The notes under the pieces were generated by a model. The model did not search any database and was not told the origin of the DNA. It worked only from the letters and a program-made list of their open reading frames with translations. A program made the translations under genes and the position numbers. Shown piece after piece: positions 10,146 to 58,535 of a stretch of 64,000 bases of DNA; the first letter of the stretch is position 1, and each line of letters begins with the position of its first letter. This stretch comes from an uncultured Eubacteriales bacterium (GTDB taxonomy: Bacteria; Bacillota; Clostridia; Oscillospirales; QAMX01): positions 6,527 through 70,526 of the forward strand of contig CAUGMN010000003.1 in NCBI GenBank assembly GCA_959600635.1, in the 5' to 3' direction.

Positions 10146-10246
10146 ATTTTTGACTGTAACCCTGTGTCCCGCTCCGCCTTAGCCGTTCCCGGCAGGGAAC
10201 GGAGCGGCGGCCGGAATCCAGACAAATCGATTGGAGGAACGAAACG

Positions 10247-10870: not shown

Positions 10871-10957
10871 GCCGCGCCGTCCGGCGCGCCGGAGCGGAGC
10901 GGCGGGACGGAGACGGCCGCCGCGGCAGCTTCACGCCATCTGCCTAAAATAGAAAGC

Positions 10958-10999
10958 AAAAACGCGCCGGGGAAAGCGCTTTTCCCCGGCGCGTTTTCT
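10958..10999. terminator. bidirectional terminator between convergent genes
   Basis: Perfect 17-bp palindrome AACGCGCCGGGGAAAGC/GCTTTCCCCGGCGCGTT, flanked by an A-run and a T-run. Confidence 0.8.
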
Positions 11000-11049
11000 G
11001 ATTTTATTGTTATCTGCCGCCGCCAACGAGACGACGCCCGCAGAACCGC

Positions 11050-11478
11050 TCAGGCATTCAGGATTGCTAACGCCGACCGGTATTTTTCAGCGCGTTTCAA
11101 GTCTTTTTCGGTGATGCGGTCCAGCCTTGTCAGATCCAAATTGTGCGTCAGATCGGCAATCTTCACTCTTCTGGCAAGGTCGTTTTCCCTGATTTTCCGG
11201 ACGTAATCAAGGTACGGAACGCTTTTGTCATGCGTCATCAGCGCAACTGCGGCCACGACCTCATCCGGAAAGCCCATCGCCCTTAAAGCCTGAAAGGTGA
11301 CGTCCGTATCTTCAACGATGTCATGGAGCAGCGCGACGCAGGCGGAAGCTTCATCCGTCATGGACTCCGCGACATGGAAGGGATGAAAGGGATACGGTAT
11401 ACCGCACTGATCCGATTGACCCTTATGCTTCTCAAAGCACAGCTTCATCGCCTTCTTCGTCAATTCCGTATAAATCAT
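11050..11478 (-). CDS. HD-domain protein, small alarmone ((p)ppGpp) hydrolase-like
   Basis: 142 aa with KHKGQ..., HPFHVAE and LLHDIVEDT motifs, as in the RelA/SpoT hydrolase domain. Confidence 0.75.
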   Translation of the reverse strand: MIYTELTKKAMKLCFEKHKGQSDQCGIPYPFHPFHVAESMTDEASACVALLHDIVEDTDVTFQALRAMGFPDEVVAAVALMTHDKSVPYLDYVRKIRENDLARRVKIADLTHNLDLTRLDRITEKDLKRAEKYRSALAILNA

Positions 11479-16305: not shown

Positions 16306-16316
16306 AGCTTTTCCCC

Positions 16317-31839: not shown

Positions 31840-31965
31840 TTCAGCGCCAGCTGGTTCGCTTTAAGGGTGATTTCGGACGCGCCTGCGCGAGCTCGCTTCC
31901 ATTCATCTCATCCGCCAGAGCGAAAACGCTCCGCAGACCGTTCTTTCAGAAAACCGTTGCCCCGC

Positions 31966-32334
31966 TCATGCTTTCCCGGCTAAGCCTCGCAGCATATCGA
32001 GTACGACTGCTCTCTGTTCCGGCGACAGCTCTGCAATCAGGGCGTAAATCTCCGCGGCCTCGCCGTCTCCGGACGGTTCCCCTTTTCCGGCCTCCGGCGG
32101 TCTTTGCGCTTGGTCTGTCTGGCCGGTCAGGTATTCAACCGTCGTGTTGAGCTTGTCGGCAATGATAGAGAGTTCGTTGGCGTCGATGTGATCTTTGCCC
32201 AGCCTGACATCCGCTAAAAAAGTAGCTCGTTTGCCAATCAGAGAACATAAATATGTCATCGTCAACCCTTGCGTCTTAGCCAATGTCTTTATTCTATTCA
32301 CGTCTATATTGTGCACTGTGCCCAAAATAATCAC
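31966..32334 (-). CDS. XRE-family HTH protein, paralog A (weak RBS, GTG start; possibly decaying)
   Basis: The HTH_3-like N-terminus (IKTLAKTQGLTMTYLCSLIGKRATFLADVRLG) diverges from copies B and C; the C-terminal ~75 aa are nearly identical to them. The RBS is degenerated relative to copy C. Confidence 0.65.
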   Translation of the reverse strand: MIILGTVHNIDVNRIKTLAKTQGLTMTYLCSLIGKRATFLADVRLGKDHIDANELSIIADKLNTTVEYLTGQTDQAQRPPEAGKGEPSGDGEAAEIYALIAELSPEQRAVVLDMLRGLAGKA

Positions 32335-32360
32335 GTCCGATTTGTATATAATACCAAATC

Positions 32361-32402
32361 CGATAAAATTATCGAATTGCTATTGACATTCGATAATTTT
32401 AT
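32361..32402 (+). promoter_or_regulatory. operator/promoter A: inverted repeat around a TTGACA box; -10 and downstream gene deleted
   Basis: CGATAAAATTATCGAA - 12 nt including TTGACA - TTCGATAATTTTAT (14/14 complementary). Confidence 0.6.
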
Positions 32403-32435
32403 TAGAAAACGGCCATAGCCGAAGCCGCACCCCGC

Positions 32436-32804
32436 TCATGCTTTTCCGGCTAAGCCCCGCAGCATGTCGAGCACGACCGCTCTCTGCTCCGGCGACAGCT
32501 CTGCAATCAGGGCGCAGATCTCCGCGGCCTCGCCGTCTTCGGCCGGTTCCCCTTTTCCGGCCTCCGGCGGTCTTTGCGCTTGATCTGTCTGGTCGGTCAG
32601 GTATTCAACCGTCGTGTTAAGCTTGTCGGCAATGATAGAGAGCTCGTTGGCGTCGATGTGATCTTTGCCAAATCGCACTTCGTTTAAAAAGCCACTTCTT
32701 TTCCCAATACAATCACACAAAAATTTCAATGTAATTCCTTGACTTTTCGCCAACATCCTTATCTTGTCAATATTGACATTAGTAATATTGCACAATTCAA
32801 CCAC
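32436..32804 (-). CDS. XRE-family HTH protein, paralog B
   Basis: IRMLAKSQGITLKFLCDCIGKRSGFLNEVRFG plus the conserved C-terminus. AAGGAG RBS; the true start is probably the TTG a few codons inside the ORF-track GTG. Confidence 0.75.
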   Translation of the reverse strand: MVELCNITNVNIDKIRMLAKSQGITLKFLCDCIGKRSGFLNEVRFGKDHIDANELSIIADKLNTTVEYLTDQTDQAQRPPEAGKGEPAEDGEAAEICALIAELSPEQRAVVLDMLRGLAGKA

Positions 32805-32828
32805 TCCTTATTTGTGCAAAACGTATAA

Positions 32829-32881
32829 CCACTTAATTCTGTGGAAATTTCATTGACTTCCATAAAATTCAGTGGTATATT
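32829..32881 (+). promoter_or_regulatory. operator/promoter B: inverted repeat embracing TTGACT - 17 nt - TATATT
   Basis: Arms CCACTTAATTCTGTGG and CCATAAAATTCAGTGG (13/16 complementary). The second arm fills the promoter spacer. Confidence 0.6.
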
Positions 32882-33161
32882 ATTGTCGCGTCGAGAGACA
32901 AACGCAGCAGTTTCGGCACGGATGCCGCGTGCGGCGCGCCTATGCAGGCGCGGAAAACGCCTTCCAAATAAAACGGTTCGTTGAAAGCGGCTCGCTTCGC
33001 TCAGCCGCGCCCGTTTCGGCCGCATTTCAAAATTAAGCGGTCCGCAGCGGCAGTTCCGTCCGGCCGCGCCGGAAAAATGCGCAAAACTGCCCATATTATA
33101 GTCAGTATACCTGATCGCCTAATCCCTGTCAAGCGTCAAGCGCTTTCCCCCTCCTTTTGAA

Positions 33162-33335
33162 GAGGAGCGTTTTAAGGACAAGCTCCCCGAAGAGCTGCGC
33201 AAAGAGCTGGCCGAGCTCGAAGACTGCTGCGGCGCCGTACACAGCGCGGATCTCGCGCCGGCCTTTTCCGACGGCTTCCGGTTCGGCGCGAGACTCGCCA
33301 CCGAGATTTTTGGCGGCGAGAGCCTCATGGATTAG
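33162..33335 (+). pseudogene. 5'-truncated copy of the small helical protein gene (lacks start and first ~35 codons)
   Basis: In frame it reads EERFKDKLPEELRKELAELEDCCGAVHSADLAPAFSDGFRFGARLATEIFGGESLMD*, nearly identical to 34121..34294. The upstream ~130 bp with the RBS and ATG is deleted. Confidence 0.8.
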
Positions 33336-33363
33336 AAAACGTCCCCCGCCATTTGCACCCCGC

Positions 33364-33756
33364 TCATGCTTTCCCGGCTAAGCCCCGCAGCATATCGAGC
33401 ACGACCGCTCTCTGTTCCGGCGACAGCTCTGCAATCAGGGCGTAAATCTCCGCGGTCTCGCCGTCTCCGGCCGGTTCCCCTTTTCCGGCCTCCGGCGGTC
33501 TTTGCGCTTGGTCTGTCTGGCCGGTCAGGTATTCAACCGTCGTGTTAAGCTTGTCGGCAATGATAGAGAGTTCATTGGTGTCGATGTGATCATAGCCAAG
33601 CCTGACCTGTGATAAAAAGGCACTCCGCTTTCCAATACAATCGCATAAATATTTCATCGTTATTCCACGCAATTTGGCAACTTCTTTTATTCTATCTACG
33701 TTTACATTTTTTACATTGTAAAACTTGCCCAAAAATGACACCTCCTTTTTGTGCAA
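33364..33756 (-). CDS. XRE-family HTH protein, paralog C
   Basis: IKEVAKLRGITMKYLCDCIGKRSAFLSQVRLG plus the conserved C-terminus. Strong AAGGAGGTG RBS; the likely start is the TTG 8 nt downstream of it (protein begins GKFYNVKNVNV). Confidence 0.8.
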   Translation of the reverse strand: MHKKEVSFLGKFYNVKNVNVDRIKEVAKLRGITMKYLCDCIGKRSAFLSQVRLGYDHIDTNELSIIADKLNTTVEYLTGQTDQAQRPPEAGKGEPAGDGETAEIYALIAELSPEQRAVVLDMLRGLAGKA

Positions 33757-33766
33757 AATAGAGATT

Positions 33767-33819
33767 CGGTAAAATTCTTCCGAAAGCCCATTGACTTCGA
33801 AAGAATTTTACCGTATACT
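33767..33819 (+). promoter_or_regulatory. operator/promoter C: inverted repeat embracing TTGACT - 17 nt - TATACT
   Basis: Arms CGGTAAAATTCTTCCG and CGAAAGAATTTTACCG (15/16 complementary). The second arm fills the spacer. Confidence 0.65.
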
Positions 33820-34015
33820 ATTGTCGTGCCGAGAGACAAACGCCGTGGTTTCGGCAGCGTTTCAAAATCAAGCGGTCCGCGGCGGCAGTTCCGTCCGGCC
33901 GCGCCGAAAAATGCGCAAAACTGCCCATATTATATTTAGTATACCTGATTGTCTAACCTCTGTCAAGCATTCGGCGCTTTTCCCCTCATTTTGATTAAAA
34001 AAGGATGGGTCTGTT

Positions 34016-34294
34016 ATGACAACACTCGAAGAGCTCTACTACGGAAATATCGTCCCCCACGATATGCGGCACCGCCCGACGCCCCAGCAGAGACGCCGGG
34101 AAAAGGAGCTGTTCGCGGCGGAGGAGCGTTTTAAGGACAAGCTCCCCGAAGAGCTGCACAAAGAGCTGGCCGAGCTCGAAGACTGCTGCGGCGCCGTACA
34201 CAGCGCGGATCTCGCGCTGGCCTTTTCCGACGGCTTCCGGCTCGGCGCGAGACTCGCCGCCGAGATTTTTGGCGGCGAGAGCCTCGCGGATTAG
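34016..34294 (+). CDS. small helical protein of unknown function (LYYGNI-P family seen beside XRE regulators in Clostridia)
   Basis: 92 aa: MTTLEELYYGNIVPHDMRH...EERFKDKLPEELHKELAELEDCC...FSDGFRLGARLAAEIF. It is the only intact copy of three and is followed by a terminator. Confidence 0.7.
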   Translation: MTTLEELYYGNIVPHDMRHRPTPQQRRREKELFAAEERFKDKLPEELHKELAELEDCCGAVHSADLALAFSDGFRLGARLAAEIFGGESLAD

Positions 34295-34307
34295 ATTACA
34301 GCCACAG

Positions 34308-45931: not shown

Positions 45932-47209
45932 TCAATAGACGTATTTTGAGGTATAGGTATATTTGCTGGAAAAATCGCCGATGTCCGGGTTGCCGGCGGC
46001 GTAGGTCGGATCCATGTGGTTCCACTTGGATCCGTCGAAGTAAATGACGCTGTTGACCCATCCCTGCCCCTCGACGTAAACGTTGATCCACGCGTGGTAC
46101 GCCGTGCCGCAGTAACCGACGACGAGCTTGGTCGGTATACCGAGGCTGCGGAGCATCGCCGACATCACTGCGGCATAGTCAAAGCAGATCCCCTTCTTTT
46201 TGACCAGAACGTCGTCGATGTTCGGCAGATAGCCGCTCTGCACCGTCGCGGCGCGGTCATAGTCATACGCGATGTTCTTGATGACATACTCGTAGACCGC
46301 GTCGACTTTTTCGAGCGTTCCGGATTTTCCCGCGGTCAGCTGCGCGGCGAGCTTGACGGCCTGACTGTTCGAGGTAAAATTGACGTATTGGTTGGCGTGC
46401 AGGAAAGCGGCGAAGGCGTTTTTCATTTTCACCGAGACCGTGGCCTTATACGCGGTCGAATACTTCGTCCCCGCTGTGTTCTGATACACGCCGATGGTAT
46501 AGCTCCCGTCGCCGTCCGAGAACGGGAAGACCTCGTAATTGCCCTTGTTGTTGAGATTATAGTTATAAGTCGTCCCGCTCGGGCCGGTGATCAGCACCTT
46601 GATGCGCGTATCGACGCCGCCGGTGTATTTGACCATCACATACCCCTCGGCCTTGTTCGATGCGTCTACGACCGCTTTCTCGTTGGAGTACACCTCGCTT
46701 CCGCCCGCCGTGCCGTCGCCGGGATCGATCGGCGTGTTGCCGAGAAACGGCGTCTCCATCGACATCGCCGCAGTCGTCGCAGGCGCGGCGGTGGTCTGCG
46801 GCGGCGCGGTCGTCGCGGGCGCAGCGGTGGTTCGCGGCGGCGCGGTCGTCGCGGGCGCGGCAGTGGTCGGCGGCGGCGTGGTCGCCGCGAGCGGCGTCGA
46901 GGTTTCATCCGTGATCTGCACCGGCGGCTCGGTCGTCACAGCCGTTTCGGCGGGCGACGTCTCTTCCGGGGTCGTCAGCGGCGGTTCTTCGGTCTGCGAG
47001 CCGGCCGTTTCGTCCGGCTTTCCGTCGTTGGGCGTCGTCGCCGGATCGCCCGCAGCGGGCGAGGAAACCGTCGTCTGCGCCGTGGTTTCCGGCTTATCTC
47101 CGGAAAAAGAGCAGGCCGCAAGCAGCGCGGCGGCCAAAGCCGCGAGCGCCGTCAAAGCGATCCGATTCCACGAAAGCGTTCTGCGTTTGGAAATTTCCTG
47201 GTTTTTCAT
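45932..47209 (-). CDS. transglutaminase-like (Cys-His-Asp) lipoprotein with a T/P/A-rich linker
   Basis: Lipobox LAALAAALLAAC; core KKGICFDYAAVMSAMLRSLGIP...GTAYHAWINVY...HMDPT. Confidence 0.85.
   Translation of the reverse strand: MKNQEISKRRTLSWNRIALTALAALAAALLAACSFSGDKPETTAQTTVSSPAAGDPATTPNDGKPDETAGSQTEEPPLTTPEETSPAETAVTTEPPVQITDETSTPLAATTPPPTTAAPATTAPPRTTAAPATTAPPQTTAAPATTAAMSMETPFLGNTPIDPGDGTAGGSEVYSNEKAVVDASNKAEGYVMVKYTGGVDTRIKVLITGPSGTTYNYNLNNKGNYEVFPFSDGDGSYTIGVYQNTAGTKYSTAYKATVSVKMKNAFAAFLHANQYVNFTSNSQAVKLAAQLTAGKSGTLEKVDAVYEYVIKNIAYDYDRAATVQSGYLPNIDDVLVKKKGICFDYAAVMSAMLRSLGIPTKLVVGYCGTAYHAWINVYVEGQGWVNSVIYFDGSKWNHMDPTYAAGNPDIGDFSSKYTYTSKYVY
46765..46875. repeat. 36-bp in-frame tandem repeat (about 3 copies) encoding TTAAPATTAPPx
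   Basis: GCGGCGGCGCGGTCGTCGCGGGCGC recurs at 46798 and 46834 (period 36 nt) inside the linker of the transglutaminase-like gene. Confidence 0.8.
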
Positions 47210-47254: not shown

Positions 47255-48319
47255 TTACGATATGCGGATTTTTTTCTGCAACAGTTCGAGGTTCACAGCG
47301 TGACGCAGCGCGGCGCTTTCGCTGATGATTCCGTTTTTATACAGCGCCAGAAGGCTCGCGTCCATCGTCGCCATGCCCTCCGCCGCCGAAGAGGCGATCA
47401 GCGTGTCGAGCTGGTGGATTTTGGCGTCGCGGATCATATTCCGCACGGCGTTGTTGGCGTGGAGAATCTCAAAAGCCGGATAAACCGCGCCGTCAAGCGT
47501 CGGGATCAGCTGCTGGGAAAACACCGATTGCAGCAGCATGGAGAGCTGAATGCGGATCTGCGGCTGCTGATTGGGCGGAAACACGTCGATGATGCGGTCG
47601 ATGGTGCTGGCCGCGCCGACAGTGTGCAGCGTCGAGATGACGAGATGCCCCGTCTCCGCCGCCGTCATCGCGGTCCTGATCGTCTCATAGTCGCGCATCT
47701 CGCCGACGAAGATGACGTCGGGCGCCTGCCGCAGCGCCGCCCGCAGCGCCGAGACGTAATTCTCGGTGTCCAGCTCGATCTCGCGCTGGCTGACAATGCT
47801 TTTTTTGTTGCGGTGCAGGTATTCAATCGGGTCTTCGAGCGTGATGATGTGGCCGCTGCGCGTCTCGTTAATGCGGTCGATGAGACAGGCGAGCGTCGTC
47901 GATTTGCCGCTTCCGGCCGAGCCGGTGACGAGGATCAGGCCCTTGGTGCGCTCGGCCGCGTCCATGACCGTTTCGGGGATATGCAGGGCGCGGTAATCGG
48001 GGATGCCGAACGAGACGACGCGGATGACCGCCGCCAGCGAGCTGCGCTGCTTATAGGCGCTGACGCGGAAACGCGAGAGCTTCGGGATCGAAAAGGAAAA
48101 ATCGTCGTCTCCTGTGCGCAGAAAGCGCTCCATATCGCGGCCGGCAAGCTGGTAGAGCTTTGTAATCAGCGCCTCCGAGCGGTCGGGCAGGATGCGCTCC
48201 TCCCCCTGCGGGGAAATCCGTCCGTTCTGCTTGAACGCCACGGGAAAACCGGCGACGATGAAAATATCCGACGCGCCGCTCCGGACGGCGCCGTCCAGCA
48301 TGGTCTGAATCTCGGTCAT
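47255..48319 (-). CDS. pilT: PilT-family type IV pilus (retraction-type) ATPase
   Basis: Walker A GSAGSGKSTT, Walker B DVIFVGEMRD, His box TGHLVISTLHT, and the PilT-specific AIRNLIRE-like motif AVRNMIRDAKIHQL; 354 aa. Confidence 0.88.
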   Translation of the reverse strand: MTEIQTMLDGAVRSGASDIFIVAGFPVAFKQNGRISPQGEERILPDRSEALITKLYQLAGRDMERFLRTGDDDFSFSIPKLSRFRVSAYKQRSSLAAVIRVVSFGIPDYRALHIPETVMDAAERTKGLILVTGSAGSGKSTTLACLIDRINETRSGHIITLEDPIEYLHRNKKSIVSQREIELDTENYVSALRAALRQAPDVIFVGEMRDYETIRTAMTAAETGHLVISTLHTVGAASTIDRIIDVFPPNQQPQIRIQLSMLLQSVFSQQLIPTLDGAVYPAFEILHANNAVRNMIRDAKIHQLDTLIASSAAEGMATMDASLLALYKNGIISESAALRHAVNLELLQKKIRIS

Positions 48320-48416
48320 AAAATGGTAACTCCTCTCTGAGCGCCGCGCCCGCCGTTTCGCCGGCGCACGCGCAGATCGATTTTTCTGCGGGGAACCGTA
48401 TCGCTTCGCCGTTTTT

Positions 48417-48854
48417 TCATTCGCCGTCCCAGAGCTTGATATCCGTATCCGGCGACCATGTGCCCGCGTCCGTCACGCGCAGGGCATCCACGGCAATCGC
48501 CCCGCCGCGCATGACGGCGCGGACGGAGAGCAGGCGTTTTTCGTCGATTGGCTCCGCCCATGTCATCACAACCGCGCCGTCCCGCTCCTCTGAGACCACG
48601 GCCTCGGGCAGCAATCTGCGAAACGTCTCCGGCTCGCGCGGTTGGATCGCCGCGACCGCGGCGAGCGTTTCATAGGCGCGCGCCTCGGCGGCGTAATACG
48701 CGGCCGTCGAATCGGCGGCGGCCTGCGCCAGCTTTTTCTCAGAATTCGCCGAAAGCAGCGTCAGGACCGCGAAGATCGTCATACACAGCACGGCGAACAC
48801 CGTCACAATCGTCGCGCTGCCGACATGCAGCTTCATCTCCCGTTTTTCCGTCAT
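48417..48854 (-). CDS. small N-terminally anchored protein (PilX/ComGG-like minor pseudopilin candidate)
   Basis: ATGA overlap with the upstream gene. MTEKREMKLHVGSATIVTVFAVLCMTIFAVLTLL gives a single N-terminal TM helix. The start is trimmed from the ORF-track 49028. Confidence 0.6.
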   Translation of the reverse strand: MTEKREMKLHVGSATIVTVFAVLCMTIFAVLTLLSANSEKKLAQAAADSTAAYYAAEARAYETLAAVAAIQPREPETFRRLLPEAVVSEERDGAVVMTWAEPIDEKRLLSVRAVMRGGAIAVDALRVTDAGTWSPDTDIKLWDGE

Positions 48855-49321
48855 CGCGCCGCCTCCCCCGTATAGCCGGACGCGGTGATCTCCATCAGCG
48901 GCCGCTCTTCGCCGCAGGCCGTCACGGAAACCGCCGCCGTCCGAACCGGAGACGCCGCCGCGCCGGCCGAGGGCCGCGCCGACAGCGTCAGCACATAGGC
49001 CGCTTCGGCCGCGCCGGTTATCCGCCACTGTTCGTCATAATAAATCCGCAGCGCAGCGCCGTTTTCATCCATTTCCGCGCCGAGCACAGCGGCGCAGCGC
49101 GCCAGATCGCCCGACTCGGCCTTAAAGCATTCGGCCGCCGACTGCGCCGACAGCGCAGCGCCGTTCAGCGCCGTACTCTCCGCCGTCATGCGCTTTGCCG
49201 ACGCAAACAGGCTCAGACACACGGCGGCGCAAAGCGAAAACACGCCGACGGCGACAATCAGCTCGATTAAAAACAGCGTCGTTTTGGAGCGTCCCGATCT
49301 CCTCATACTATGTCCTCTCAT
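48851..49321 (-). CDS. pseudopilin-like protein with a near-canonical prepilin N-terminus
   Basis: RSKTT/LFLIELIVAVGVFSL has Glu at +5 and a hydrophobic helix but Thr instead of Gly at -1. An alternative ATG lies at 49306. Confidence 0.65.
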   Translation of the reverse strand: MRGHSMRRSGRSKTTLFLIELIVAVGVFSLCAAVCLSLFASAKRMTAESTALNGAALSAQSAAECFKAESGDLARCAAVLGAEMDENGAALRIYYDEQWRITGAAEAAYVLTLSARPSAGAAASPVRTAAVSVTACGEERPLMEITASGYTGEAAR

Positions 49322-49799
49322 CCTGCGCGCCGACCGTTGCGACGAGCGCGGCCGCGCGGCCGCCGTTGCCCGTTACCGAAATCTCCAACAGGCCGTCGCC
49401 CGCCATTTGAAACGAAAGCCCCTCCGCAGGCGCGACGGCCTCGCCGTCCTCCGGCGAAAAGCGCAGCCCCGCCTCGGCGTACAGCTCGCAGAGGCTGCCG
49501 TCATGGCAGTAGATCGTCGTGACAAAGTCGATCCCGTCCAGCGTTTCGGTCATTTCCAGCGCCGCGCCGTCGCCGAACTGCGTGATACGGATCATGCCGC
49601 TGCCGTTATAGGCGCGCACGCGCGCCGTCAGATAGGCCAGCGTCGTCCGCTCTCCGAAGCGCGCGTCGATCTCGTCTACGGTGCGGCGGTAGACGTTGGC
49701 GCCCATCATCAGGCACAGCAGCACGCAGCCGGCGTAGACGCAGAAAAGGATCAGCGCCGCCGCCAAATCGACTGACGCCGTGTTTTGCGTTTTTCTCAC
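49308..49799 (-). CDS. small N-terminally anchored membrane protein of the pilus-like cluster
   Basis: GTG at 49799 with a GAAGGGGG RBS is preferred (ORF track: TTG at 49823, no RBS). Contains the TM helix VDLAAALILFCVYAGCVLLCLMMG. Confidence 0.55.
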   Translation of the reverse strand: MRKTQNTASVDLAAALILFCVYAGCVLLCLMMGANVYRRTVDEIDARFGERTTLAYLTARVRAYNGSGMIRITQFGDGAALEMTETLDGIDFVTTIYCHDGSLCELYAEAGLRFSPEDGEAVAPAEGLSFQMAGDGLLEISVTGNGGRAAALVATVGAQDERT

Positions 49800-49856
49800 T
49801 GCCGCCGCGCCCCCTTCACACAATGTCGACTGCCGCTGTACATGCCCCGCCGCTTG

Positions 49857-50165
49857 TCACCGTTTTAAAATCGTCACGTCCGGCATAATGTTGGAGGCAA
49901 ATACGCTGTACATCACGGCGTATTTTTCCTCGTCGACGCGCACGCCGTAATGCCGCTTCAAATATTCATAGCTCTCCGGATAGCTGCCCTCGACGGCGTA
50001 GCAAGTGACGACGGCGCGCCGGATGCTGTCATAGGCGGCGTTCAGCTCCGCCTCGGCGTTTTTCTCCGCCGCGTTCGACACGCCGACCAGCACGCAGGCC
50101 GCGACGACGGCAAACAGCAGCAGCGAGAGCAGGTTCTGCCAAAAGGTTCCGAATGCCTTTTTCAT
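49857..50165 (-). CDS. small N-terminally anchored protein, possible pilin-like subunit
   Basis: MKKAFG/TFWQNLLSLLLFAVVAACVLVGV has a basic N-terminus, then Gly, then a hydrophobic helix (class III signal-like, no Glu+5). GGAGGCGGAG RBS; starts 22 nt after the GspF-like stop. Confidence 0.6.
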   Translation of the reverse strand: MKKAFGTFWQNLLSLLLFAVVAACVLVGVSNAAEKNAEAELNAAYDSIRRAVVTCYAVEGSYPESYEYLKRHYGVRVDEEKYAVMYSVFASNIMPDVTILKR

Positions 50166-50187
50166 AGCCCTTTTCTCCGCCTCCGCC

Positions 50188-51213
50188 TCAAATCGCCGAC
50201 ATGATCGACATCAGCGGAATCATCACCGAAATCAAAATCGCCGCGACGAGCACGGTCATCACAATCACGATCGCCGGCTCAACGCGGGAGAGCGCCGCCT
50301 CGGTCTCCTCGGCGACCTCCTGCTCGCTGCGCCGCGCGATTTCCTCCATCACCGTATCGCCGCTGCCGGCGCGGATCCCGACGGCCAGCATCTGCGCGTT
50401 GAGCGGCGACAGCACGCCGCTCTTCGTCACCGCGTCGCCGAAGCTTTGCCCTTCGCCGCACAGGGACCGGCAGCGCCGGATCCTCGCGCGCATTTTCGCG
50501 TTGGCGGTCACGCGTTCGGCCATTTCCAGCGATTCCTCCATGTCGAGCCCGCCCGCCATCGTCATCGCCATTGCCGAGGCGAACTGCGCCGAGGCGACCG
50601 TCTTGCCGAGGTGGAAGGAAAACGTCAGGGAGCCGAATTTCCCGCGCACGGCCGGGACGCGTGCCAGAACCAGACCTGCGGCGAGCAGCCCCGCGAAGAT
50701 CAGCGCCGGGATTTCCCAGTTTCGGCTCAGCCCCTCGCCGAAGCGCAGAATCGAAACCGCCACCGGCGACATCGAGCCGCCGAGCTGCGCGAACACGTCC
50801 GCAAAGATCGGCATGACCTTTGTCACCAGCACGACGACGACAAACAGCATCATCACCAAAAGGATCGCCGGATAGACCACGGCGTTCCTCACCGTTTTGG
50901 AAATGCTCTCGCGGCGGTCATAGTAGCCGGAAAGCGCGAGCGTCACCGCTTCGAGCTTGCCGGTCTTTTCGCCGATATCGATCATGTCGAGCATATATTT
51001 CGGAAAAATCCCCGCGGCCGCGGCCGCGTCGGAAAAGCGCTCGCCCAGTTCAAGCTGCCCGCAGACGCCGGTCAGCGCGGCTTTGACCCGTTTGTCCCGC
51101 TCGTTTTCGGCGATCAGCGAAACGCCCTCGGCCAGCGGGATGCCCGCTTTTAAAATCAGCGAAAGCTCGTAGCAAAAGCCGGAGATATACGCCGGCGAGA
51201 GTGTCTTTTTCAT
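50188..51213 (-). CDS. type II secretion system F family platform protein (PilC/GspF/ComGB-like)
   Basis: 341 aa with two T2SSF-type repeats (KYMLDMIDIGEKTGKLE / PLNAQMLAVGIRAGSGD) and 3 TM segments. Confidence 0.85.
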   Translation of the reverse strand: MKKTLSPAYISGFCYELSLILKAGIPLAEGVSLIAENERDKRVKAALTGVCGQLELGERFSDAAAAAGIFPKYMLDMIDIGEKTGKLEAVTLALSGYYDRRESISKTVRNAVVYPAILLVMMLFVVVVLVTKVMPIFADVFAQLGGSMSPVAVSILRFGEGLSRNWEIPALIFAGLLAAGLVLARVPAVRGKFGSLTFSFHLGKTVASAQFASAMAMTMAGGLDMEESLEMAERVTANAKMRARIRRCRSLCGEGQSFGDAVTKSGVLSPLNAQMLAVGIRAGSGDTVMEEIARRSEQEVAEETEAALSRVEPAIVIVMTVLVAAILISVMIPLMSIMSAI

Positions 51214-51302: not shown

Positions 51303-52175
51303 CTATCCTTCGATCCGCTTGGCGTGAACGACAAAGCGGATCTGTTTGCCGGTATTGGTGCAGGTCGAAAGGGTGACGATCTCGTCGCCCGCGCCGACCG
51401 TTACGCCGGTATTGTAGGCGCTGCGCATGAGGATTTTGCTCAGATACGCCTCATACGCCGCATCGTCCTCAAAGGCGAACGTATAGGTGTCGCTGTCAGT
51501 CGTGACCTGATAGGCCGCAAAGATCTGGTATTTCTTCGTGCCCGCTTCGGTCATGATATAAAAATACGGGTTTGCGTCGTAATAGGCGCGGCTTTTGTAT
51601 TTGACGAGCGTGGCGAACATCTTGCCGTTTCCGGCGTTGTGCCCGTAGATGACGGCGTTGCGCCCGCCAAGCTCCGAGCGGTAGTCGAGAAAAATGCTGC
51701 CGAGCTTGCTGGATTTGTGGTTGTAGGTGGTTCGGAGGTATTCTTCGTTATCCTCGCCTTTTAAAAGCGGGTAGTTGATCGTCGTGCCCGACTGCCAGAT
51801 CCAGCCGCCGATGTCGGGGTTGACCGCTCGGAGCGCCGCCCAGTCCGGCGCAAAATCCGGCGCGGCCGGCGGCGGCGCGCTCGTCTCCGGCGGCGTCTCA
51901 GCCGTCTCCGGCTCCGATACCGTCCCGGACGGCGCGGTTCCGCCGCTTTCGTCTGTCTCCGTTTGCGGCGGCGCGGCAGTCGTATCCGGAGGCGAAGGTT
52001 CCTCACCGCTACCGGCGGGGGTGGTATAGATCAGAAACTGCTCCGCCGCGTCGTCGTAAATTTTTTCGTTTTCGCTGTATGTCGTCCAAATGCCGATCAG
52101 CTTCACCGCCGAGTAGCAAAATACCGCGGCGAACAGCGTCATCAGCGTCAGCCGAATGATTTTTCCCTTGTCCAT
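51303..52175 (-). CDS. class B sortase
   Basis: N-terminal TM anchor, P/T/E-rich linker, NPDIGGWIW...INYPLLKG, VIYGHN and TLSTC catalytic motifs typical of SrtB. Confidence 0.85.
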   Translation of the reverse strand: MDKGKIIRLTLMTLFAAVFCYSAVKLIGIWTTYSENEKIYDDAAEQFLIYTTPAGSGEEPSPPDTTAAPPQTETDESGGTAPSGTVSEPETAETPPETSAPPPAAPDFAPDWAALRAVNPDIGGWIWQSGTTINYPLLKGEDNEEYLRTTYNHKSSKLGSIFLDYRSELGGRNAVIYGHNAGNGKMFATLVKYKSRAYYDANPYFYIMTEAGTKKYQIFAAYQVTTDSDTYTFAFEDDAAYEAYLSKILMRSAYNTGVTVGAGDEIVTLSTCTNTGKQIRFVVHAKRIEG

Positions 52176-52339: not shown

Positions 52340-52378
52340 AAAAAACGAATCGGCGGGGAACATTTCGCTTCCCCGCCG
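52340..52378 (-). terminator. rho-independent terminator after the adhesin gene
   Basis: CGGCGGGGAA / TTCCCCGCCG stem followed by ATTCGTTTTTT on the minus strand. Confidence 0.75.
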
Positions 52379-52406: not shown

Positions 52407-55400
52407 TTACTTTTTGCCTTTCTTTCTGCCGCGGAAGGTCAGAACCACAAGACCCATGGCAGAGAGAACCGCGGTCGCCGCAAACAGCGCGATGTTGGAA
52501 GAATCGCTCGTGTCGGGGATATCTCCGCCCGGATCGAGCGGAACGTCGGGATCGTCGATGTCGATCTCCGGTTCCGTCGTCGTCTCGGCCGGCTCGGTCA
52601 TCGGAGGCTCAGTCGTCGTTTCCGGCGGATCGAGCGGCACCGAGGGCTCGGTGATCTCGATCTCCGGCTCGGTCGTCTCCGGCGGCTCGGTGGTTTCCGG
52701 CTCCGTCACCGGCGGCGTGGTCACCGGCGGATCCAGTCTCAGCTCGAAGTAGATGTCCAGAACATGGAGCGCGTTCGCGTTCGTCAGCTTCATCTCGGTT
52801 GCGCCGCCGACAAACGCATAGGTTTCGCCGTTATAATCGGTGTGGTTATCCGGATTGGCGGAAACGATCTGGTTCTTGTATCCGTTATACGGGCCGACGC
52901 TCTTGCTGCCGGAATCGATTACGGTGTCGCCCATATACTTGGTGTAGTGGTAAACGATCTTGTAGAAGTAGTCGTCCTCATCCACCGGCGGGGGCGTCGG
53001 CGTCTCGGTCAAACGCTCGTAGCGGAGCGTGATCGTGTAGCTGCCGTTCTCTTCGCTCAGGGTGATGCTTGCCGGGTCAGCGGAAACATAGGCGTAGGTA
53101 TTGTCGCCGTAGGTCAGCTGCTTGGCAATATCGGAGCCTGTAATCGTCGTGCCGAGCGGCGCGCTTCCGTTGCCGCTCGTCTCGCCGTCCTTCACAGGTT
53201 CACCGCCGTCGGTGGACGTGTAGTACTCGTGAATGATCGTGTAGGAGACGCTCGGAATCGTCTTCGTCGCGTAGTACACCTTGATAACCGTGTTGTTGTC
53301 GTGAATCGTCGCCGGCAGGCCGTTGACGCTCGTTCTCACATAGCCCGCTTTCAGCGCGTCGGAATCCGCAACGTTTTCGACCTCCGTGCCGTAGGCGATG
53401 TTGGTGAAGGAATCCGTATCAAACGGGGTATTTTCTCCGACGTAGTAGTGCTCAACCGTGTAGCTCAGGTCGCCGCGCAGGTCGTAGTAGACCTCAATGA
53501 CCGTGCTGTTGTCGTGAATCGTCGCCGGCAGGCCGTTGACGTTCGTTCTCACATAGCCCGCTTTCAGCGCGTCGGAATCCGCAACGTTTTCGACCTTCGT
53601 GCCGTAGCTGATGTTAGCGAAAGAATCCGTATCAAACGGGGTATTTTCTCCAACATAGTAGTGCTTAACCGTGTAGCTCAGGTCGCCGCGCAGGTCGTAG
53701 TAGACCTCAATGACCGTGCTGTTGTCTTGAATCGTCGCCGGCAGGCCGTTGACGTCCGTTCTCACATAACCCGCTTTCAGCGCGTCGGAATCCGCAACCT
53801 CGTTTACCGGCGTGTCGTAGGCGATGTTGGTGAAGGAATCCGTATCAAACGGGGTCTCTTCTCCGACGTAGTAGTGCTTAACCGTGTAGCTCAGGTCGCC
53901 GCGCAGGTTGTAGTACACCTTGATAACCGTGCTGTTGTCGTGAATCGTCGCCGGCAGACCGTTGACGCTCGTTCTCACATAGCCCGCTTTCAGCGCGTCG
54001 GAATCCGCAACCTCTTTTACCTTCGTGTCGTAGGCGATGTTGGTGAAGGAATCCGTATCAAACGGGGTCTCTTCTCCAACGTAGTAGTGTTCAACCGTGT
54101 AGCTCAAATTGGTCGGCTGATTGGCCCGGTAGTACAGTTTCAGCGTCAGGCTGGCGCTGTCAAACGCAATCTCCGTCACGCTGCCCGCAACCGACGCATC
54201 ATAGGCAAAGCCTTCAACCGTTTTCACATATGGGGCGGCAAGCTTCGTCTCGCCGTATTTGATGACGCCGCCCTCGTCGGGATAGCTCGTCAGGTTCTGT
54301 TCATACGCTCCGGTGTTGTAGCCCGTCTCAAACCAGTGCTCGACTGTGAAATTCTTGTCCGCAGGCTGATTGGCCCGGTAGTACAGTTTCAACGTCAGGC
54401 TCGCGCTGTCAAACGCAATCTCCGTCACGCTGCCCGCAACCGACGCGTCATAGGCAAAGCCTTCAACCGTTTTCACATACGAGGCGGCAAGCTTCGTCTC
54501 GCCGTATTTGATGACGCCGCCCTCGTCGGGATAGCTCGTCAGGTTCTGTTCATACGCTCCGGTGTTGTAGCCCGTCTCAAACCAGTGCTCGACTGTGAAA
54601 TTCTTTTGCAGCAGCTTGTTTTCCACGCCGTTGGCCGGAACCGTAGAGTTCTTGACTTCGCCGTAAACGACGTCGAAGGTGTAGGAAGCCGCCTGGCTCT
54701 GATCGTAACCCGCGGCGACCGTTTCCGTCAGCGTGAAGCTGTGGCCGCTCGGGATCCCCGTGAAGCTGACCTGCGTTTCGCCGCCGCTGAGCGTCACGGT
54801 TTTCGACCAGCTGCCGCTCGTCAGCGTGAACGCCGTCCCGTCGAGAGAAACGCTGTTTTCGCCGAGTTTGGCAAAGCTGAGGCTGCCGAGGTAGCCCTTA
54901 ACGGTCGGGACTTTGAGGTTTGTCGAATACAGCGTCGGCTGCAACTGGCCGTTCACGGTCAGCATATAAGTCAGCGATGTGGTCTTGTTGGCGGCGTAAG
55001 CCGTTTCCGCCGTAAAGCCCTCCGCCTTGGTATCCAGCGTGACCGAGTAGGTCATCGTATAGGTGTACCAGCCGTCGACCGGGCCGGTGCGGGAGATATC
55101 ATTTTTCAAATCCCAAATCAGGGTATCGGTATCGGTATTGAACTTGCGGACCGCGTCGCTGTCGGCCGCCGTGGCGTTGGTCACTCTGGCAACCGATGCG
55201 TTGGCGCCGAAATCGATATAATCGCCCATCGGATCGGTAAGGATCCACGCCTGCGCCTGGTTGACGATGATCTGCGCGATGCTCTGCAAGCCGCTGAAAA
55301 TATCGTCGCCCGCGGCGATGCTCTGCGTCGCAAAGGAGCTCAGCCACGCGTCGATGCTCTGGCCGTTGACGGTTTTGCCGTTGATATCGCTGCTTTTATA

Positions 55401-56471
55401 GGAAACGGTGTACAGCTTGGCGCCCTTGTCCTTGATCTGCTTGGGGAGGTTGTCGCCGTGCCGGACATGATTATTGCCTACGTTTCTTGTTTGGGTGCAG
55501 TAGATGTCATGGTAATCGTCGTGCTCAGCTTCGTTGCCGCCGCCCCGGCTGCCGGAGATAAAATTAACGTCGCTGGGCTGTCCGTCTACATGGTACGTCG
55601 GTACGCCGTCGGTCATCATGACGACATACTTGTTCCCGATCGCAGAGACGAGCGTCTCGCTCAGGAGGTTGTTGGCGAGGCGGAGGCCGGCCTCGATATT
55701 CGTGCCGCCGCCGTCCGTCGTTCTCTCACCGCCGTGCGGGCCGGTATAGGTGTTTATCGTCGTCCCCGTCTGGTGATTATGTCTCTTGGCCTGCTTGTCA
55801 TCTTGCGTCGTATAATCGCAACCCTCATAAGTGCATTGATAATGGCCGCCCAAATAACCGTCGCCGAGATAGCCGTCTGTCCACTCCATGAAATTCTCAT
55901 AGACGGCTTCCTCATGCGTATGTGTGCCGGTCGTGTTGCAGGCGCCGTTGCCGGAACGGTAGGCAAAACCATTTTGAACCGCGTCAATTCCGTTGTTGAC
56001 GGCAGTCAAGTTGCCGTTTGCATCCGTCCAGTAGAGGGTGGTTTTGCCGTTAGAGCCAAACTCGACGACCGCGACATAGCGCAGCCCGTCGCCCGCCTCC
56101 TTGACGAACTCCGCGACAAAGTTTTTCGCCGCCGTCTTGGCGTTCGCCATATCGGTGCTGCTCATGCTGTTCGAAGCGTCCAGCACAAGAACGACCGCCG
56201 CGTCCTTGGACACGACCTGCGTCTGGACGTCCTCCTTGGTTTTTGCTGTGAGAGTAATCTCAAAGGTATTCTCTCCGGTCTGCTCGATCGTCTTGGCGTG
56301 CTGGACCTTTCCGTCAGCGGTGGTCTGCCATTCGCCGTTGGAGACGATCTGGTTTTTCCCCGTCGGTTCTCCTGCCGCAATGATGCCGCCGGTCAAAACC
56401 GGGGTCAGCACCATAACGACCGCGAGGAAAAACGAAAGCGTACGCTTCCAGGGGGTGTTCAAATTCTTCAT
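52407..56471 (-). CDS. 1354-aa surface adhesin: signal peptide, vWA domain, repeat modules, P/T/E stalk, C-terminal sorting-signal-like anchor
   Basis: MKNLNTPWKRTLSFFLAVVMVLTPVLTG signal; MIDAS VLVLDASNSMS; 2x83-aa and 4-5x71-aa (MucBP-like YTVxHYY...VYY) repeats. The C-terminus is IPDTSDSSN + hydrophobic helix + RGRKKGKK. Confidence 0.9.
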   Translation of the reverse strand: MKNLNTPWKRTLSFFLAVVMVLTPVLTGGIIAAGEPTGKNQIVSNGEWQTTADGKVQHAKTIEQTGENTFEITLTAKTKEDVQTQVVSKDAAVVLVLDASNSMSSTDMANAKTAAKNFVAEFVKEAGDGLRYVAVVEFGSNGKTTLYWTDANGNLTAVNNGIDAVQNGFAYRSGNGACNTTGTHTHEEAVYENFMEWTDGYLGDGYLGGHYQCTYEGCDYTTQDDKQAKRHNHQTGTTINTYTGPHGGERTTDGGGTNIEAGLRLANNLLSETLVSAIGNKYVVMMTDGVPTYHVDGQPSDVNFISGSRGGGNEAEHDDYHDIYCTQTRNVGNNHVRHGDNLPKQIKDKGAKLYTVSYKSSDINGKTVNGQSIDAWLSSFATQSIAAGDDIFSGLQSIAQIIVNQAQAWILTDPMGDYIDFGANASVARVTNATAADSDAVRKFNTDTDTLIWDLKNDISRTGPVDGWYTYTMTYSVTLDTKAEGFTAETAYAANKTTSLTYMLTVNGQLQPTLYSTNLKVPTVKGYLGSLSFAKLGENSVSLDGTAFTLTSGSWSKTVTLSGGETQVSFTGIPSGHSFTLTETVAAGYDQSQAASYTFDVVYGEVKNSTVPANGVENKLLQKNFTVEHWFETGYNTGAYEQNLTSYPDEGGVIKYGETKLAASYVKTVEGFAYDASVAGSVTEIAFDSASLTLKLYYRANQPADKNFTVEHWFETGYNTGAYEQNLTSYPDEGGVIKYGETKLAAPYVKTVEGFAYDASVAGSVTEIAFDSASLTLKLYYRANQPTNLSYTVEHYYVGEETPFDTDSFTNIAYDTKVKEVADSDALKAGYVRTSVNGLPATIHDNSTVIKVYYNLRGDLSYTVKHYYVGEETPFDTDSFTNIAYDTPVNEVADSDALKAGYVRTDVNGLPATIQDNSTVIEVYYDLRGDLSYTVKHYYVGENTPFDTDSFANISYGTKVENVADSDALKAGYVRTNVNGLPATIHDNSTVIEVYYDLRGDLSYTVEHYYVGENTPFDTDSFTNIAYGTEVENVADSDALKAGYVRTSVNGLPATIHDNNTVIKVYYATKTIPSVSYTIIHEYYTSTDGGEPVKDGETSGNGSAPLGTTITGSDIAKQLTYGDNTYAYVSADPASITLSEENGSYTITLRYERLTETPTPPPVDEDDYFYKIVYHYTKYMGDTVIDSGSKSVGPYNGYKNQIVSANPDNHTDYNGETYAFVGGATEMKLTNANALHVLDIYFELRLDPPVTTPPVTEPETTEPPETTEPEIEITEPSVPLDPPETTTEPPMTEPAETTTEPEIDIDDPDVPLDPGGDIPDTSDSSNIALFAATAVLSAMGLVVLTFRGRKKGKK
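53264..54115. repeat. four tandem 213-bp (71-aa) repeats inside the adhesin gene, plus a fifth divergent copy downstream
   Basis: CGTAGTAGTGCT(C/T)AACCGTG recurs at 53441, 53654, 53867 and 54080 (period exactly 213 nt). Confidence 0.9.
54117..54614. repeat. two near-identical tandem 249-bp (83-aa) repeats inside the adhesin gene
   Basis: CTGATTGGCCCGGTAGTACAGTTTCA starts at 54117 and 54366; the two copies differ at only a few positions. Confidence 0.9.
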
Positions 56472-56655
56472 TGCCAACGTCCTTTCTTTTCGCTTTGCTT
56501 GATATCGCTCTGACAAAGGACGAATTTTGGCTGCCGGACTGCCGTCGCCTTTCGGCCTTAGGCTCCTGAGCTTTGCGTCCCGCAGTTTCCCGCGGTTTGC
56601 CGTTTCAGTATTCGACTGTCATTGAAACGTTTTGATGTCTGCGGTGTTTTTTTTG

Positions 56656-57147
56656 CTACTCTTCCTTGATACTGCTTTCGTCGAGCGCGCTGTCGATCAG
56701 TTTCAGCAGCTCCAGCGCGCTTCGGAACCGCTGCGTCTTGTTTTTCTCCGCCCAGACGACGGAGCCCTGCCACGTTGCGTTTTGCCGGTACTGTACATGA
56801 ACCACAAAAGTAGCCTTGTCGCCCCGCTGGCTTGTGACCTCGTTTTCGCTCATAAGCTTTGTTCTCTCCCTTACGGCCGGCCGCGGCGTTTTTTCCTCCT
56901 GCTTTCTGCCGAACGTCCTACTCTCTGTGGATGCCTGCGGATACCGCGTCTCGTCAAAGATTCCGTCCGCTCTGAGCAGCAGCTCTCCAATCTCCGAAAA
57001 ACAGACCGGCTCGCCCGCGTAACAGTGATACAGTCTGTAACTCACGCCGTTTTCCGCGCCGTCAACACAGATACAAAGGATATTCGGTGCAACCCTTCCT
57101 ATCCTTCTCTGTATCAAGCTCTCATCACCTCTCACGCGCCGTTTCAT
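56656..57147 (-). CDS. conserved hypothetical protein (Clostridia family with C-terminal F(V/A)V.V.YRQNATWQG...RSALELLKLIDSAL)
   Basis: 163-aa ORF. The ATG at 57147 lies only ~14 nt from the -10 box, so the mRNA would be near-leaderless; alternatively, translation starts at the TTG at 57117, which follows an AGAGGTGA RBS. Confidence 0.65.
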   Translation of the reverse strand: MKRRVRGDESLIQRRIGRVAPNILCICVDGAENGVSYRLYHCYAGEPVCFSEIGELLLRADGIFDETRYPQASTESRTFGRKQEEKTPRPAVRERTKLMSENEVTSQRGDKATFVVHVQYRQNATWQGSVVWAEKNKTQRFRSALELLKLIDSALDESSIKEE

Positions 57148-57255: not shown

Positions 57256-58491
57256 TCACCATCTGACGGTCCCGATCGTCTTGCCCTCGCTGGGGCCGGA
57301 CGCTGAAATCATCTTAAAGCGCATACGCACGCCGCGCGGACGGCAGTTTTCCCGGAAAATCCGCTCGACGCGCGTCGAAACGATCGAGCAGTTCTCCTGG
57401 CTGATGCCGATCAGCAGCACCAGAAAACGCCCCGGCGACAGGCAGGTGTACATGTCGCCGCGGCGCAGCGCGCCTTTGAGCGAAGCGGAAGCCGCGTCCG
57501 AAGCGGCGCGGAGCTTGTCTCCCTCCTCCAGCGGCCGGCCGGAAAGGTCGGTCAGCGTACAGAGCATCAGGTAGACCGACTGCCCGCTCCGCTCGACGAT
57601 GCGGATCACATAGCGGTAGCTCTCGGTAAACGTCAGGTAGTCGCAGAAAAACGCGCCGCGGGTTTCGCCCTCTTCGTCGAGGAGCTTTTTGACGCTGTCG
57701 ATCGAGACGTCGTGATCCGGGATCTGCTCGGCGATTCTGGCGTGCAGCGCGATCATCTGGTCGCTGGGCTTTAAGCCCAGCTCCGTGTAATACGTATCCG
57801 TCACCGATTCAAACGCCGCGAGCGCCTCTCTTGGGCGGCGCAGATCGATCAGGGCGGCAATGCGCATCAGGTGCAGGCTCTCGTCATACGGATAGATCGC
57901 GCTCGCCGTCGTGGAGATCGCATAGATCTTTTCCAAATCGCCGGCCGTTCGCAGAGCCGCCGCCGCGTCTTCGATACAGCCGAGATAGAGGTTTTTCAGG
58001 CGCGCCGACTCGACCGCAACCCAATCCTCGGCGAGAAAATTGGGCAAAAGCTCGCCCTTATAGAGTTCCAGCGCGTCGAGGCGGTGATTCAGCGCCGTCT
58101 CCGCGTCGCCCGCGGCCGCGGCCGCCGCGGCTTCATCGAGCAGCGCCTCAAAACGGCGGACGTCCGTATCGACCGGGATCTCCCCGTTCCAGCCGCACAT
58201 GCCGTTTTTGCTGGTGATATACGTCTCATCCGGCAGCCCCGACGAAACCAGCAGTTTCCGGAGCCGGTGCAGCGTTACTCGGAACGTGTTCGACGGATCC
58301 CCGCATTCGTCGTCGCTGTACAGCATGTCGTACAGCTCTTCCTTATGAAAAGATTTTCCCTGATAAAAAATTAAAAATTGCAGCAGGCCGACCACGCGGC
58401 TGCCCCGATTTTGCCACAGCATCAACGGTTTTCCGTTCATCTGCATGGAAAAACCGCCGAACATCGCGGCCGCCAGCGCCGTATCCTCCAT
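57256..58491 (-). CDS. SARP-type winged-helix + BTAD regulator with a degenerate GGDEF-like C-terminal domain
   Basis: FGGFSMQMNGKPLMLWQNRGSRVVGLLQFLIF...TFRVTLHRLRKLL (OmpR/SARP wHTH), then TPR-like BTAD, then a C-terminal RRGDMYTCLSPGRFLVLLIG where GGDEF would sit. ATG at 58491 with a GGGAGAG RBS is preferred over the ORF-track 58521. Confidence 0.8.
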   Translation of the reverse strand: MEDTALAAAMFGGFSMQMNGKPLMLWQNRGSRVVGLLQFLIFYQGKSFHKEELYDMLYSDDECGDPSNTFRVTLHRLRKLLVSSGLPDETYITSKNGMCGWNGEIPVDTDVRRFEALLDEAAAAAAAGDAETALNHRLDALELYKGELLPNFLAEDWVAVESARLKNLYLGCIEDAAAALRTAGDLEKIYAISTTASAIYPYDESLHLMRIAALIDLRRPREALAAFESVTDTYYTELGLKPSDQMIALHARIAEQIPDHDVSIDSVKKLLDEEGETRGAFFCDYLTFTESYRYVIRIVERSGQSVYLMLCTLTDLSGRPLEEGDKLRAASDAASASLKGALRRGDMYTCLSPGRFLVLLIGISQENCSIVSTRVERIFRENCRPRGVRMRFKMISASGPSEGKTIGTVRW

Positions 58492-58535
58492 AAAAATCTC
58501 TCCCGTCATGGAAACATTCAAATTATCTCATTTAT

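Follow-up and report, generated by a model that had tools for sequence, protein, structure and literature searches.

A conserved gene module of gut and fermenter Clostridia may encode a type IV filament machine powered by a motor of the PilT clade

We analyzed a 64,000-nucleotide stretch of DNA (the window) from an uncultured Eubacteriales bacterium (positions 6,527 to 70,526 of contig CAUGMN010000003.1, assembly GCA_959600635.1), which is chromosomal Bacillota DNA of ~60% G+C that also encodes PolC, IF3, L20 and L35. Six core genes, closely spaced or slightly overlapping on the minus strand at window positions 47255-51213, encode a platform protein, four small proteins (p1 to p4) and an ATPase, and together with a lipoprotein gene they make up a conserved module of seven genes that is unnamed and widespread in Clostridia from guts and fermenters. 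In the current picture, PilB-type ATPases extend type IV filaments and PilT-type ATPases retract them, with few exceptions (CpaF of the Tad system and PilT of the MSHA system). Here, we propose, with a probability of roughly 0.55 on the sequence evidence set out below, that the module encodes a type IV filament (pseudopilus) machine of an undescribed, stand-alone kind, with a PilT-clade ATPase as its motor.

By profile, motif and tree comparisons, the ATPase (354 amino acids, 47255-48319) is a clear member of the PilT family, and it is the predicted hexameric and sole secretion ATPase of the module. The PilT/PilU model TIGR01420 matched it with 418.1 bits (cut-off 319.1) over profile positions 2-339 of 343, while its scores stayed under the cut-offs of the models for ComGA (NF041000, 133.7 vs. 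300), PilB (122.3 vs. 675.65), GspE (131 vs. 630.25) and TadA/CpaF (TIGR03819, 43 bits vs. 373). The T2SSE domain (PF00437) was found at 3.5e-45. When sequences in the PDB were searched, PilT was the top match (2e-94 to 1e-79), followed by PilU (2e-73); weaker matches were obtained to DotB (7e-35) and to GspE and PilB (~1e-24), and the PilB/GspE alignment was confined to the core (residues 117-275). The protein is a short form that lacks the N1 domain, and it contains a single Cys and thus lacks the tetracysteine Zn motif of PilB and GspE. A first-pass annotation of the window had pointed to an AIRNLIRE-like motif and to PilT-like Walker and His boxes in this protein. All of these are present (Walker A GSAGSGKST, Asp box, Walker B, His box and the AIRNLIRE-type AVRNMIRDAKIHQL), and the nucleotide-binding motifs and the AIRNLIRE-type helix are kept in 33 module ATPases with the consensus N.AirnmiResK.HQi.

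The ATPase shares 57-77% identity with 32 ATPases of the same module, 47% with the PilT of Aquifex aeolicus, 38% with Escherichia coli YggR and 29-30% with E. coli GspE and HofB. A neighbor-joining tree was built from 33 module ATPases, A. aeolicus PilT and E. coli YggR, GspE and HofB, with no canonical Firmicutes PilT among them; in this tree, the module ATPases formed one group beside A. aeolicus PilT and YggR, away from GspE and HofB. Neither the family cut-offs nor the tree placed the ATPase with ComGA or PilB, the grouping that would have told against the PilT assignment of the first-pass annotation. Retraction alongside an extension ATPase would be the role expected from its family, and no such partner ATPase is present in 58 loci of the module. 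As a separate observation, in locus L012 (Hungatella effluvii, GCA_042848345.1, positions 10001-11350) the module ATPase is called with 449 amino acids and carries an internal duplication of ~95 residues (STLHTVGAANTIDR...MVSMDT twice), which may be either a genuine tandem copy or an artifact of assembly.

To the claim that this PilT-type protein is the only motor of the gene set, the first-pass annotation had joined the statement that the window contains no PilB/GspE-type ATPase, no prepilin peptidase and no PilMNO, and here the Pfam, phmmer and motif scans agree. Pfam scans of all called open reading frames (ORFs) in the 64-kb window detected no second T2SSE domain, no Peptidase_A24, no PilM, PilN or PilO, no secretin and no GspC domain. 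In addition, 58 loci of the module, namely the window and 57 others with up to 10 kb of flank (0.94 Mb in all), were searched in six frames by phmmer with E. coli GspE, GspF, GspG-M and GspO. GspE matched one ORF per locus in all 58 loci, always the PilT-like gene, and GspO, GspL and GspM matched no six-frame ORF of these loci. The A24 motif GxGD[..]K was absent from the window and occurred twice in the metagenomic loci, both times in an unrelated protein. Across the 58 loci, each with one T2SSE ATPase and no A24 peptidase, no canonical pilB-pilD-pilA set was found adjacent to the core genes. These results support PilT as the sole motor at the level of the locus, though not of the genome as a whole.

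The module is far from a local peculiarity. When metagenome contigs were scanned with a p1 alignment, at least 545 relatives were recovered, from which 80 loci were kept, and home-made hidden Markov models delimited 39 complete cores among them; p1 was used as the query since the protein p2 (DUF4860) alone returned six relatives, its alignment returned one locus from species-representative genomes, and an alignment of more divergent DUF4860 sequences contained no sufficiently conserved stretch for scanning. These loci come from gut, termite, rumen and fermenter metagenomes. The order platform-p1-p2-p3-p4-ATPase was identical in 39/39 complete metagenomic loci, and the platform-first, ATPase-last arrangement, which the first-pass annotation had contrasted with comG, is real, opposite to that of comG and constant. 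The same order was found in genomes of Hungatella, Oscillospiraceae, Acutalibacteraceae, Ruminococcaceae and 'Peptococcaceae', which are also the names carried by the 120 closest ATPase relatives listed (64-80% identity). The module is common among Clostridia of the human gut, and cultured carriers include Hungatella hathewayi and H. effluvii. All six proteins sampled among these 120 matches lie in the same module. Identical copies of the ATPase were present on metagenome-assembled scaffolds with their neighbors unchanged, and a relative with 49% identity in the DUF4860 protein retains the sortase, platform, p1 to p4, ATPase and lipoprotein genes. A literature search, itself not exhaustive, found no description of the module, of DUF4860 or of this gene combination, and PADLOC gave no defense-system match beyond generic P-loop matches.

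The absence of PilB, PilD and PilMNO from the locus could also be read as the mark of a decaying pilus operon that has lost its function, a reading for which we found no positive support. It is effectively refuted by conservation. The seven-gene composition and order are identical in no fewer than 39 divergent loci, whose reading frames are intact, the ATPases keep all catalytic motifs at 57-77% identity, and p1 retains invariant residues in 116 homologues of a family with more than 1200 clusters at 50% identity.

The platform protein (GspF/PilC type, 341 amino acids, 50188-51213) contains two T2SSF domains (PF00482, 2.2e-43) and scored under the cut-offs of GspF (TIGR02120, 178 bits vs. 424) and ComGB (87 bits vs. 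240). It is encoded by the first core gene in 39/39 complete metagenomic loci, and every copy of the module has such a dedicated platform gene. A T2SSE-family ATPase and a T2SSF-family platform are encoded in one operon.

We next consider the four small proteins, of which p1 (102 amino acids, 49857-50165) is the best conserved and serves as the module's signature. Its N-terminal part is a membrane helix, and no Pfam or NCBIfam family matched it; its homologues share the motifs RRAVVxCYAxEGxYP and FAxNxMPD, with Y56, A57, E59, G60, Y62, P63, Y86, A90, N92 and P95 invariant in 116 sequences. The family comprises 5499 clusters at 90% identity and 1245 clusters at 50% identity at E<=1e-3. In an AlphaFold2 model (predicted local distance difference test, pLDDT, 90.7), a helix (residues 2-59) is followed by a short helix and a beta-hairpin, which gives the lollipop shape of a small pilin. 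Foldseek searches with this model gave no significant match, and type IV pilins were found weakly (6xxd, TMq 0.45). The N-terminus of p1 (MKKAFG/TFW) had been described as class III-like in the first-pass annotation; the Gly is not conserved among 80 homologues, which share no conserved cleavage motif, and the description is only partly right, although the modelled shape is that of a pilin-like lollipop. The C-terminal MPD(V/I)T of p1 was considered as a sortase signal and rejected (P-x-x-T spacing, no hydrophobic tail).

The second small protein, p2 (163 amino acids, GTG start, 49308-49799), belongs to DUF4860 (PF16152, 84.3 bits vs. a cut-off of 25) and appears minor-pilin-like. Its AlphaFold2 model (pLDDT 84, from a shallow alignment of eight sequences) has a helix (residues 2-64) and then an eight-stranded beta-sheet, and Foldseek gave its highest probabilities to TTHA1219, a type IV-like pilin (0.92), and to XcpW/GspJ, a minor pseudopilin (0.72-0.84), with non-significant E-values of 0.07-0.7. 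Structure models cover p1 and p2, whereas p3 and p4 were judged from their N-termini.

The pilin-type N-terminus of p3 (151 amino acids, 48851-49306) reads KTT/LFLIE, with the slash before position +1, and makes p3 the candidate core subunit. Glu+5 is invariant in 45/45 homologues, which follow the motif [KR]-x-[small]/L-F-L-M-E, and when a p3 profile was compared with the PDB, six of the nine matches were type IV pilins aligned in the correct register (best match geopilin, E=0.009). Residue -1, in contrast to the Gly expected by a canonical prepilin peptidase, is Gly in 20, Thr in 19, Ser in 11 and another residue in 12 of 62 sequences, and the N_methyl family PF07963 touched 1/45 members. 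The fourth small protein, p4 (145 amino acids, 48417-48854; HVG/SAT), has a pilin-like N-terminus, in which Gly12 is invariant in 48/48 homologues and is followed by Ser, Gly or Thr. Its position +5 is Ile, Val or Leu, so it lacks Glu+5, and it is a candidate tip subunit. The PF13400 'Tad' match of p4 was dropped as a sign of kinship to TadE/G; it concerns the window copy only, 1/48 homologues, and was therefore treated as chance.

Profile searches of PDB sequences with p1, p2 and p4 gave no match, and no significant hhalign match linked p1 to p4 to E. coli GspG-M. The records of H. hathewayi and H. effluvii list p2 as 'DUF4860 domain-containing protein' and the other three as 'hypothetical protein'. 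Taken together, all four small proteins look pilin-like in architecture, as judged from models and motifs. The first-pass annotation had recognized a single near-canonical prepilin N-terminus, that of p3 with Thr at -1; this N-terminus is real, with Glu+5 conserved throughout, and is the only one of pilin type among the four, while the pilin-like architecture, which the first-pass annotation missed, appears to extend to all four. We also observed a conserved Cys within the membrane helix of p3 (42/45) and p4 (44/48) and a conserved extracytoplasmic Cys in p1 (43/46). A Cys in the helix, as in p3 and p4, is unusual for type IV pilins, and the partner enzyme of the module is of a Cys-His-Asp transglutaminase-like type.

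The main rival account has the module serve as an accessory of a canonical type IVa or Com pilus whose genes lie elsewhere. From the module would then come a minor-pilin or tip set, along with an alternative platform and a retraction ATPase, while PilB or ComGA, PilD and the major pilin would be provided in trans. PilT is treated as a retraction motor alongside PilB (PMC6668835, PMC6916266), the genes for prepilin peptidases and pilins frequently lie apart from those of the machinery (PMC6668835), and p1 to p4 resemble minor pilins more than a major pilin, all of which would suit an accessory. Nevertheless, we regard it as unlikely. PilT normally shares PilC with PilB, whereas every copy of the module has a platform gene of its own, and the ATPase subclade was seen only in the module context among the six database matches sampled. 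Furthermore, no canonical gene was adjacent in any of the 58 loci. Gly-1 occurs in only a third of p3 homologues, which argues against a canonical PilD-type system in trans, and the N_methyl and Tad families miss p3 and p4, unlike PilD-processed minor pilins. We favor stand-alone working because of these same features, namely the dedicated platform in every copy, the ATPase subclade seen only in the module, the lack of an adjacent canonical partner and the loss in p3 of Gly-1, a residue that dependence on PilD would require of a minor pilin.

Reviews and a superfamily survey list type IVa, IVb, MSH, type II secretion (T2SS), Com, Tad and archaeal systems (PMC6668835, PMC6916266). Judged by the scores and gene content given above, the module fails membership of the type IVa, Com, Tad and T2SS classes and fits the type IV filament superfamily through its ATPase and platform. 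The nearest in layout is ComG (ComGA-ComGG), which likewise is a single monoderm operon with a short ATPase that lacks N1, one platform, four to five small pilin-like proteins, no PilMNO and a peptidase outside the operon. However, the module ATPase is of the PilT clade and not ComGA, its platform is not ComGB, its gene order is reversed, its small proteins are unrelated to ComGC-GG and not seen by N_methyl, and it has a transglutaminase-like lipoprotein as an obligatory partner.

With the type IVa PilT (A. aeolicus 2GSZ, Pseudomonas aeruginosa 3JVV), the ATPase shares family, size and all motifs, including AIRNLIRE. The canonical PilT works on the same PilC as its partner PilB, and assembly does not require it, whereas the module has its own platform gene, no PilB-type partner in the 58 loci and no PilM, PilN or PilO in the window; p3, with Gly-1 in 20/62 and N_methyl in 1/45, also departs from type IVa pilins. 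The T2SS pseudopilus (GspG-K with GspE/F) resembles the module in its GspF-type platform, in a pilin-like set that includes a GspJ/XcpW-like protein (here DUF4860) and in one subunit without Glu+5 (GspK there, p4 here), and a short-piston function is possible in both. The differences lie in the sub-threshold GspE and GspF scores, in the lack of GspL, GspM, secretin, GspC and A24 peptidase at the locus, in the monoderm host and in the insignificant profile matches of p1 to p4 to E. coli GspG-K. Finally, there are precedents for one motor in both roles or for PilT in extension: in the Tad system one ATPase, CpaF, has been proposed to serve both extension and retraction as a bifunctional motor (Ellison et al., 2019; PMC6920026), and in Vibrio cholerae the PilT of the MSHA system helps extension (PMC9815625). 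The module ATPase is nevertheless not TadA/CpaF, a single platform gene stands in place of the pair TadB and TadC, there is no Flp-type pilin, and the PF13400 match is not reproducible across the p4 family.

The first-pass annotation had set the unit at 47255-51213. The gene set within these limits is real, while the starts of p2, p3 and p4 were revised to give the lengths stated above, and the functional unit is longer: it takes in the lipoprotein gene (45932-47209) and probably the sortase gene (51303-52175). In the window, eight tightly spaced genes run on the minus strand from 52175 to 45932 in the order sortase, platform, p1, p2, p3, p4, ATPase and lipoprotein. The intergenic gaps across this run are 0-97 nt, p3 and p4 overlap by 4 nt (the p4 start lies over the p3 stop), and each start is preceded by a Shine-Dalgarno-like sequence.

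The lipoprotein (425 amino acids) has a lipobox, a Pro/Thr-rich linker and a transglutaminase-like domain (PF01841, 1.9e-25), whose Cys-His-Asp triad motifs are kept in 44/45 relatives. Its gene adjoins the core in 30 of the 39 complete metagenomic loci, and 8 of the remaining 9 are cut at, or at most 136 nt from, the platform gene; it was also present in 8/8 loci reached via protein look-ups. It usually lies directly upstream of the core and is downstream in the window, L007 and L011. The sortase (290 amino acids, TIGR03064, 181.1 bits vs. a cut-off of 153.75) is of class B, and in the window its gene lies 89 nt upstream of the platform gene. A sortase gene is adjacent to the module in the window, L007, L011, L013, L014 and L095 and in 7/39 metagenomic loci, with varying position and orientation, and the class B sortase is thus a frequent but not universal neighbor. 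In two divergent loci, L013 (3351-5774) and L095 (2366-4601), we also noted a DUF1846 gene after the module-adjacent sortase gene, arranged alike in both, which may be another recurrent neighbor. Module-wide conservation, the membership of the lipoprotein and the frequent sortase and BTAD regulator neighbors were not part of the first-pass annotation.

A working mechanism can be outlined for the stand-alone machine. The PilT-clade hexamer would dock on its own platform to form a working motor, and this motor would drive the assembly, and probably the disassembly too, of a short filament. As the subunit with Glu+5, p3 would be the repeating subunit; p4, which lacks Glu+5, the GspJ-like DUF4860 protein and p1 may form a priming or tip complex that caps a short p3 stack, by analogy with the priming complexes of T2SS and type IVa systems. 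More speculatively, the lipoprotein may act outside the membrane, where it could open peptidoglycan cross-links for the filament or travel as surface cargo, and the pilin-like proteins may be processed, if at all, by something besides a strictly Gly-1-dependent PilD.

Several points weigh against a stand-alone PilT-driven machine. Every characterised PilT is a retraction motor, and the filament is predicted here from genes alone. An N-terminal helix with a globular head is seen in the p1 and p2 models and the p3 N-terminus aligns to pilins, but neither the fold nor the profile comparisons gave the small proteins a significant match to pilins. The negative searches cover the loci and their flanks, and PilB, ComGA or PilD may be encoded elsewhere in the genome. 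The roles of the lipoprotein and the sortase, in turn, are drawn solely from gene neighborhood. Consequently, the fullest form of the proposal is put forward tentatively and at somewhat less than even odds: that the module represents a new family of filament machines in which a PilT-clade ATPase alone powers the filament, either in its assembly or in both directions, non-canonical pilins are independent of a Gly-1-specific peptidase, and the filament is coupled to a transglutaminase-like enzyme of the wall or surface.

Upstream of the sortase gene, the window encodes a surface protein of 1369 amino acids (52407-56516, minus strand) with VWA_2, VWA and GBS104-like_Ig matches and a tip-pilin-like character. 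Its C-terminus carries a sorting signal (IPDTS, a hydrophobic stretch and KKGKK), and this VWA adhesin is a probable sortase substrate. A terminator-like hairpin 3' of the adhesin gene (52351-52378, minus strand; 10-pair stem with 8 G-C pairs and a T-rich tail) separates it from the sortase-to-lipoprotein transcription unit, and no adhesin relatives recurred in the flanks of the other loci. The adhesin gene contains tandem repeats of 213 nt (four copies, 53270-54208) and 249 nt (two copies, 54086-54583), and the length of the protein varies between metagenome contigs (1354, 1369 and 1437 amino acids). Scaffold gaps within the repeats break the ORF in some contigs, where an antisense ORF of 1249 amino acids (52764-56513, plus strand) is called instead. 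An invertible segment in the adhesin gene was considered and rejected, as the contigs are collinear with the window.

These neighbors bear on a further explanation, in which the motor and platform would cycle a very short pilin stub as a piston or extraction device. Either the lipoprotein or substrates of the sortase, for example the VWA adhesin, would thereby be carried across the thick wall, in the manner of a T2SS in a monoderm. The constant link of an extracytoplasmic enzyme to the core, the frequent link of a sortase, the resemblance of the DUF4860 model to XcpW/GspJ of T2SS and the lack of an obvious major pilin would all be in keeping with such a device. On the other hand, no module protein has a sorting signal, the adhesin gene lies behind a terminator and is not conserved in other loci, and no secretion substrate was identified. 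The piston overlaps with the stand-alone filament machine and differs from it in output alone; we consider it improbable.

Farther upstream, a cytoplasmic protein of 163 amino acids with no family match (56656-57147, minus strand), which is kept in the same-species contigs L001-L006, is encoded between the adhesin gene and a gene for a BTAD (SARP-like) transcriptional activator (57256-58521, minus strand; PF03704, 2.5e-23). A BTAD regulator gene lies directly upstream of the module in L014 and belongs to the most recurrent flanking family (9 metagenomic loci), which makes it a candidate regulator of the module.

Two other regions of the window were noted. At 14464-16320 (minus strand), an OppC-type ATP-binding cassette permease carries an RCC1-like beta-propeller (residues ~192-387) between OppC_N and the BPD_transp_1 core, which is an unusual fusion for a permease of a peptide transporter. 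At 31900-34300, the G+C content falls to 0.51 vs. ~0.60, and the region, which may be foreign DNA, contains a DUF6809 gene and three ORFs of ~125 amino acids, of which two match HTH_3 weakly.

If the stand-alone reading is true, a conserved system with PilT as its only motor would be a direct natural test of PilT-driven assembly, and if PilT cannot assemble a filament, the module would show the purpose of a 'retraction-only' machine. Surveys based on pilin HMMs could miss the module because the N_methyl and Tad families fail on p3 and p4 across the family. In addition, the partnership with a lipoprotein, which is constant, and with a sortase, which is frequent, hints at a link between a filament machine and the remodeling of the wall or surface in monoderms.

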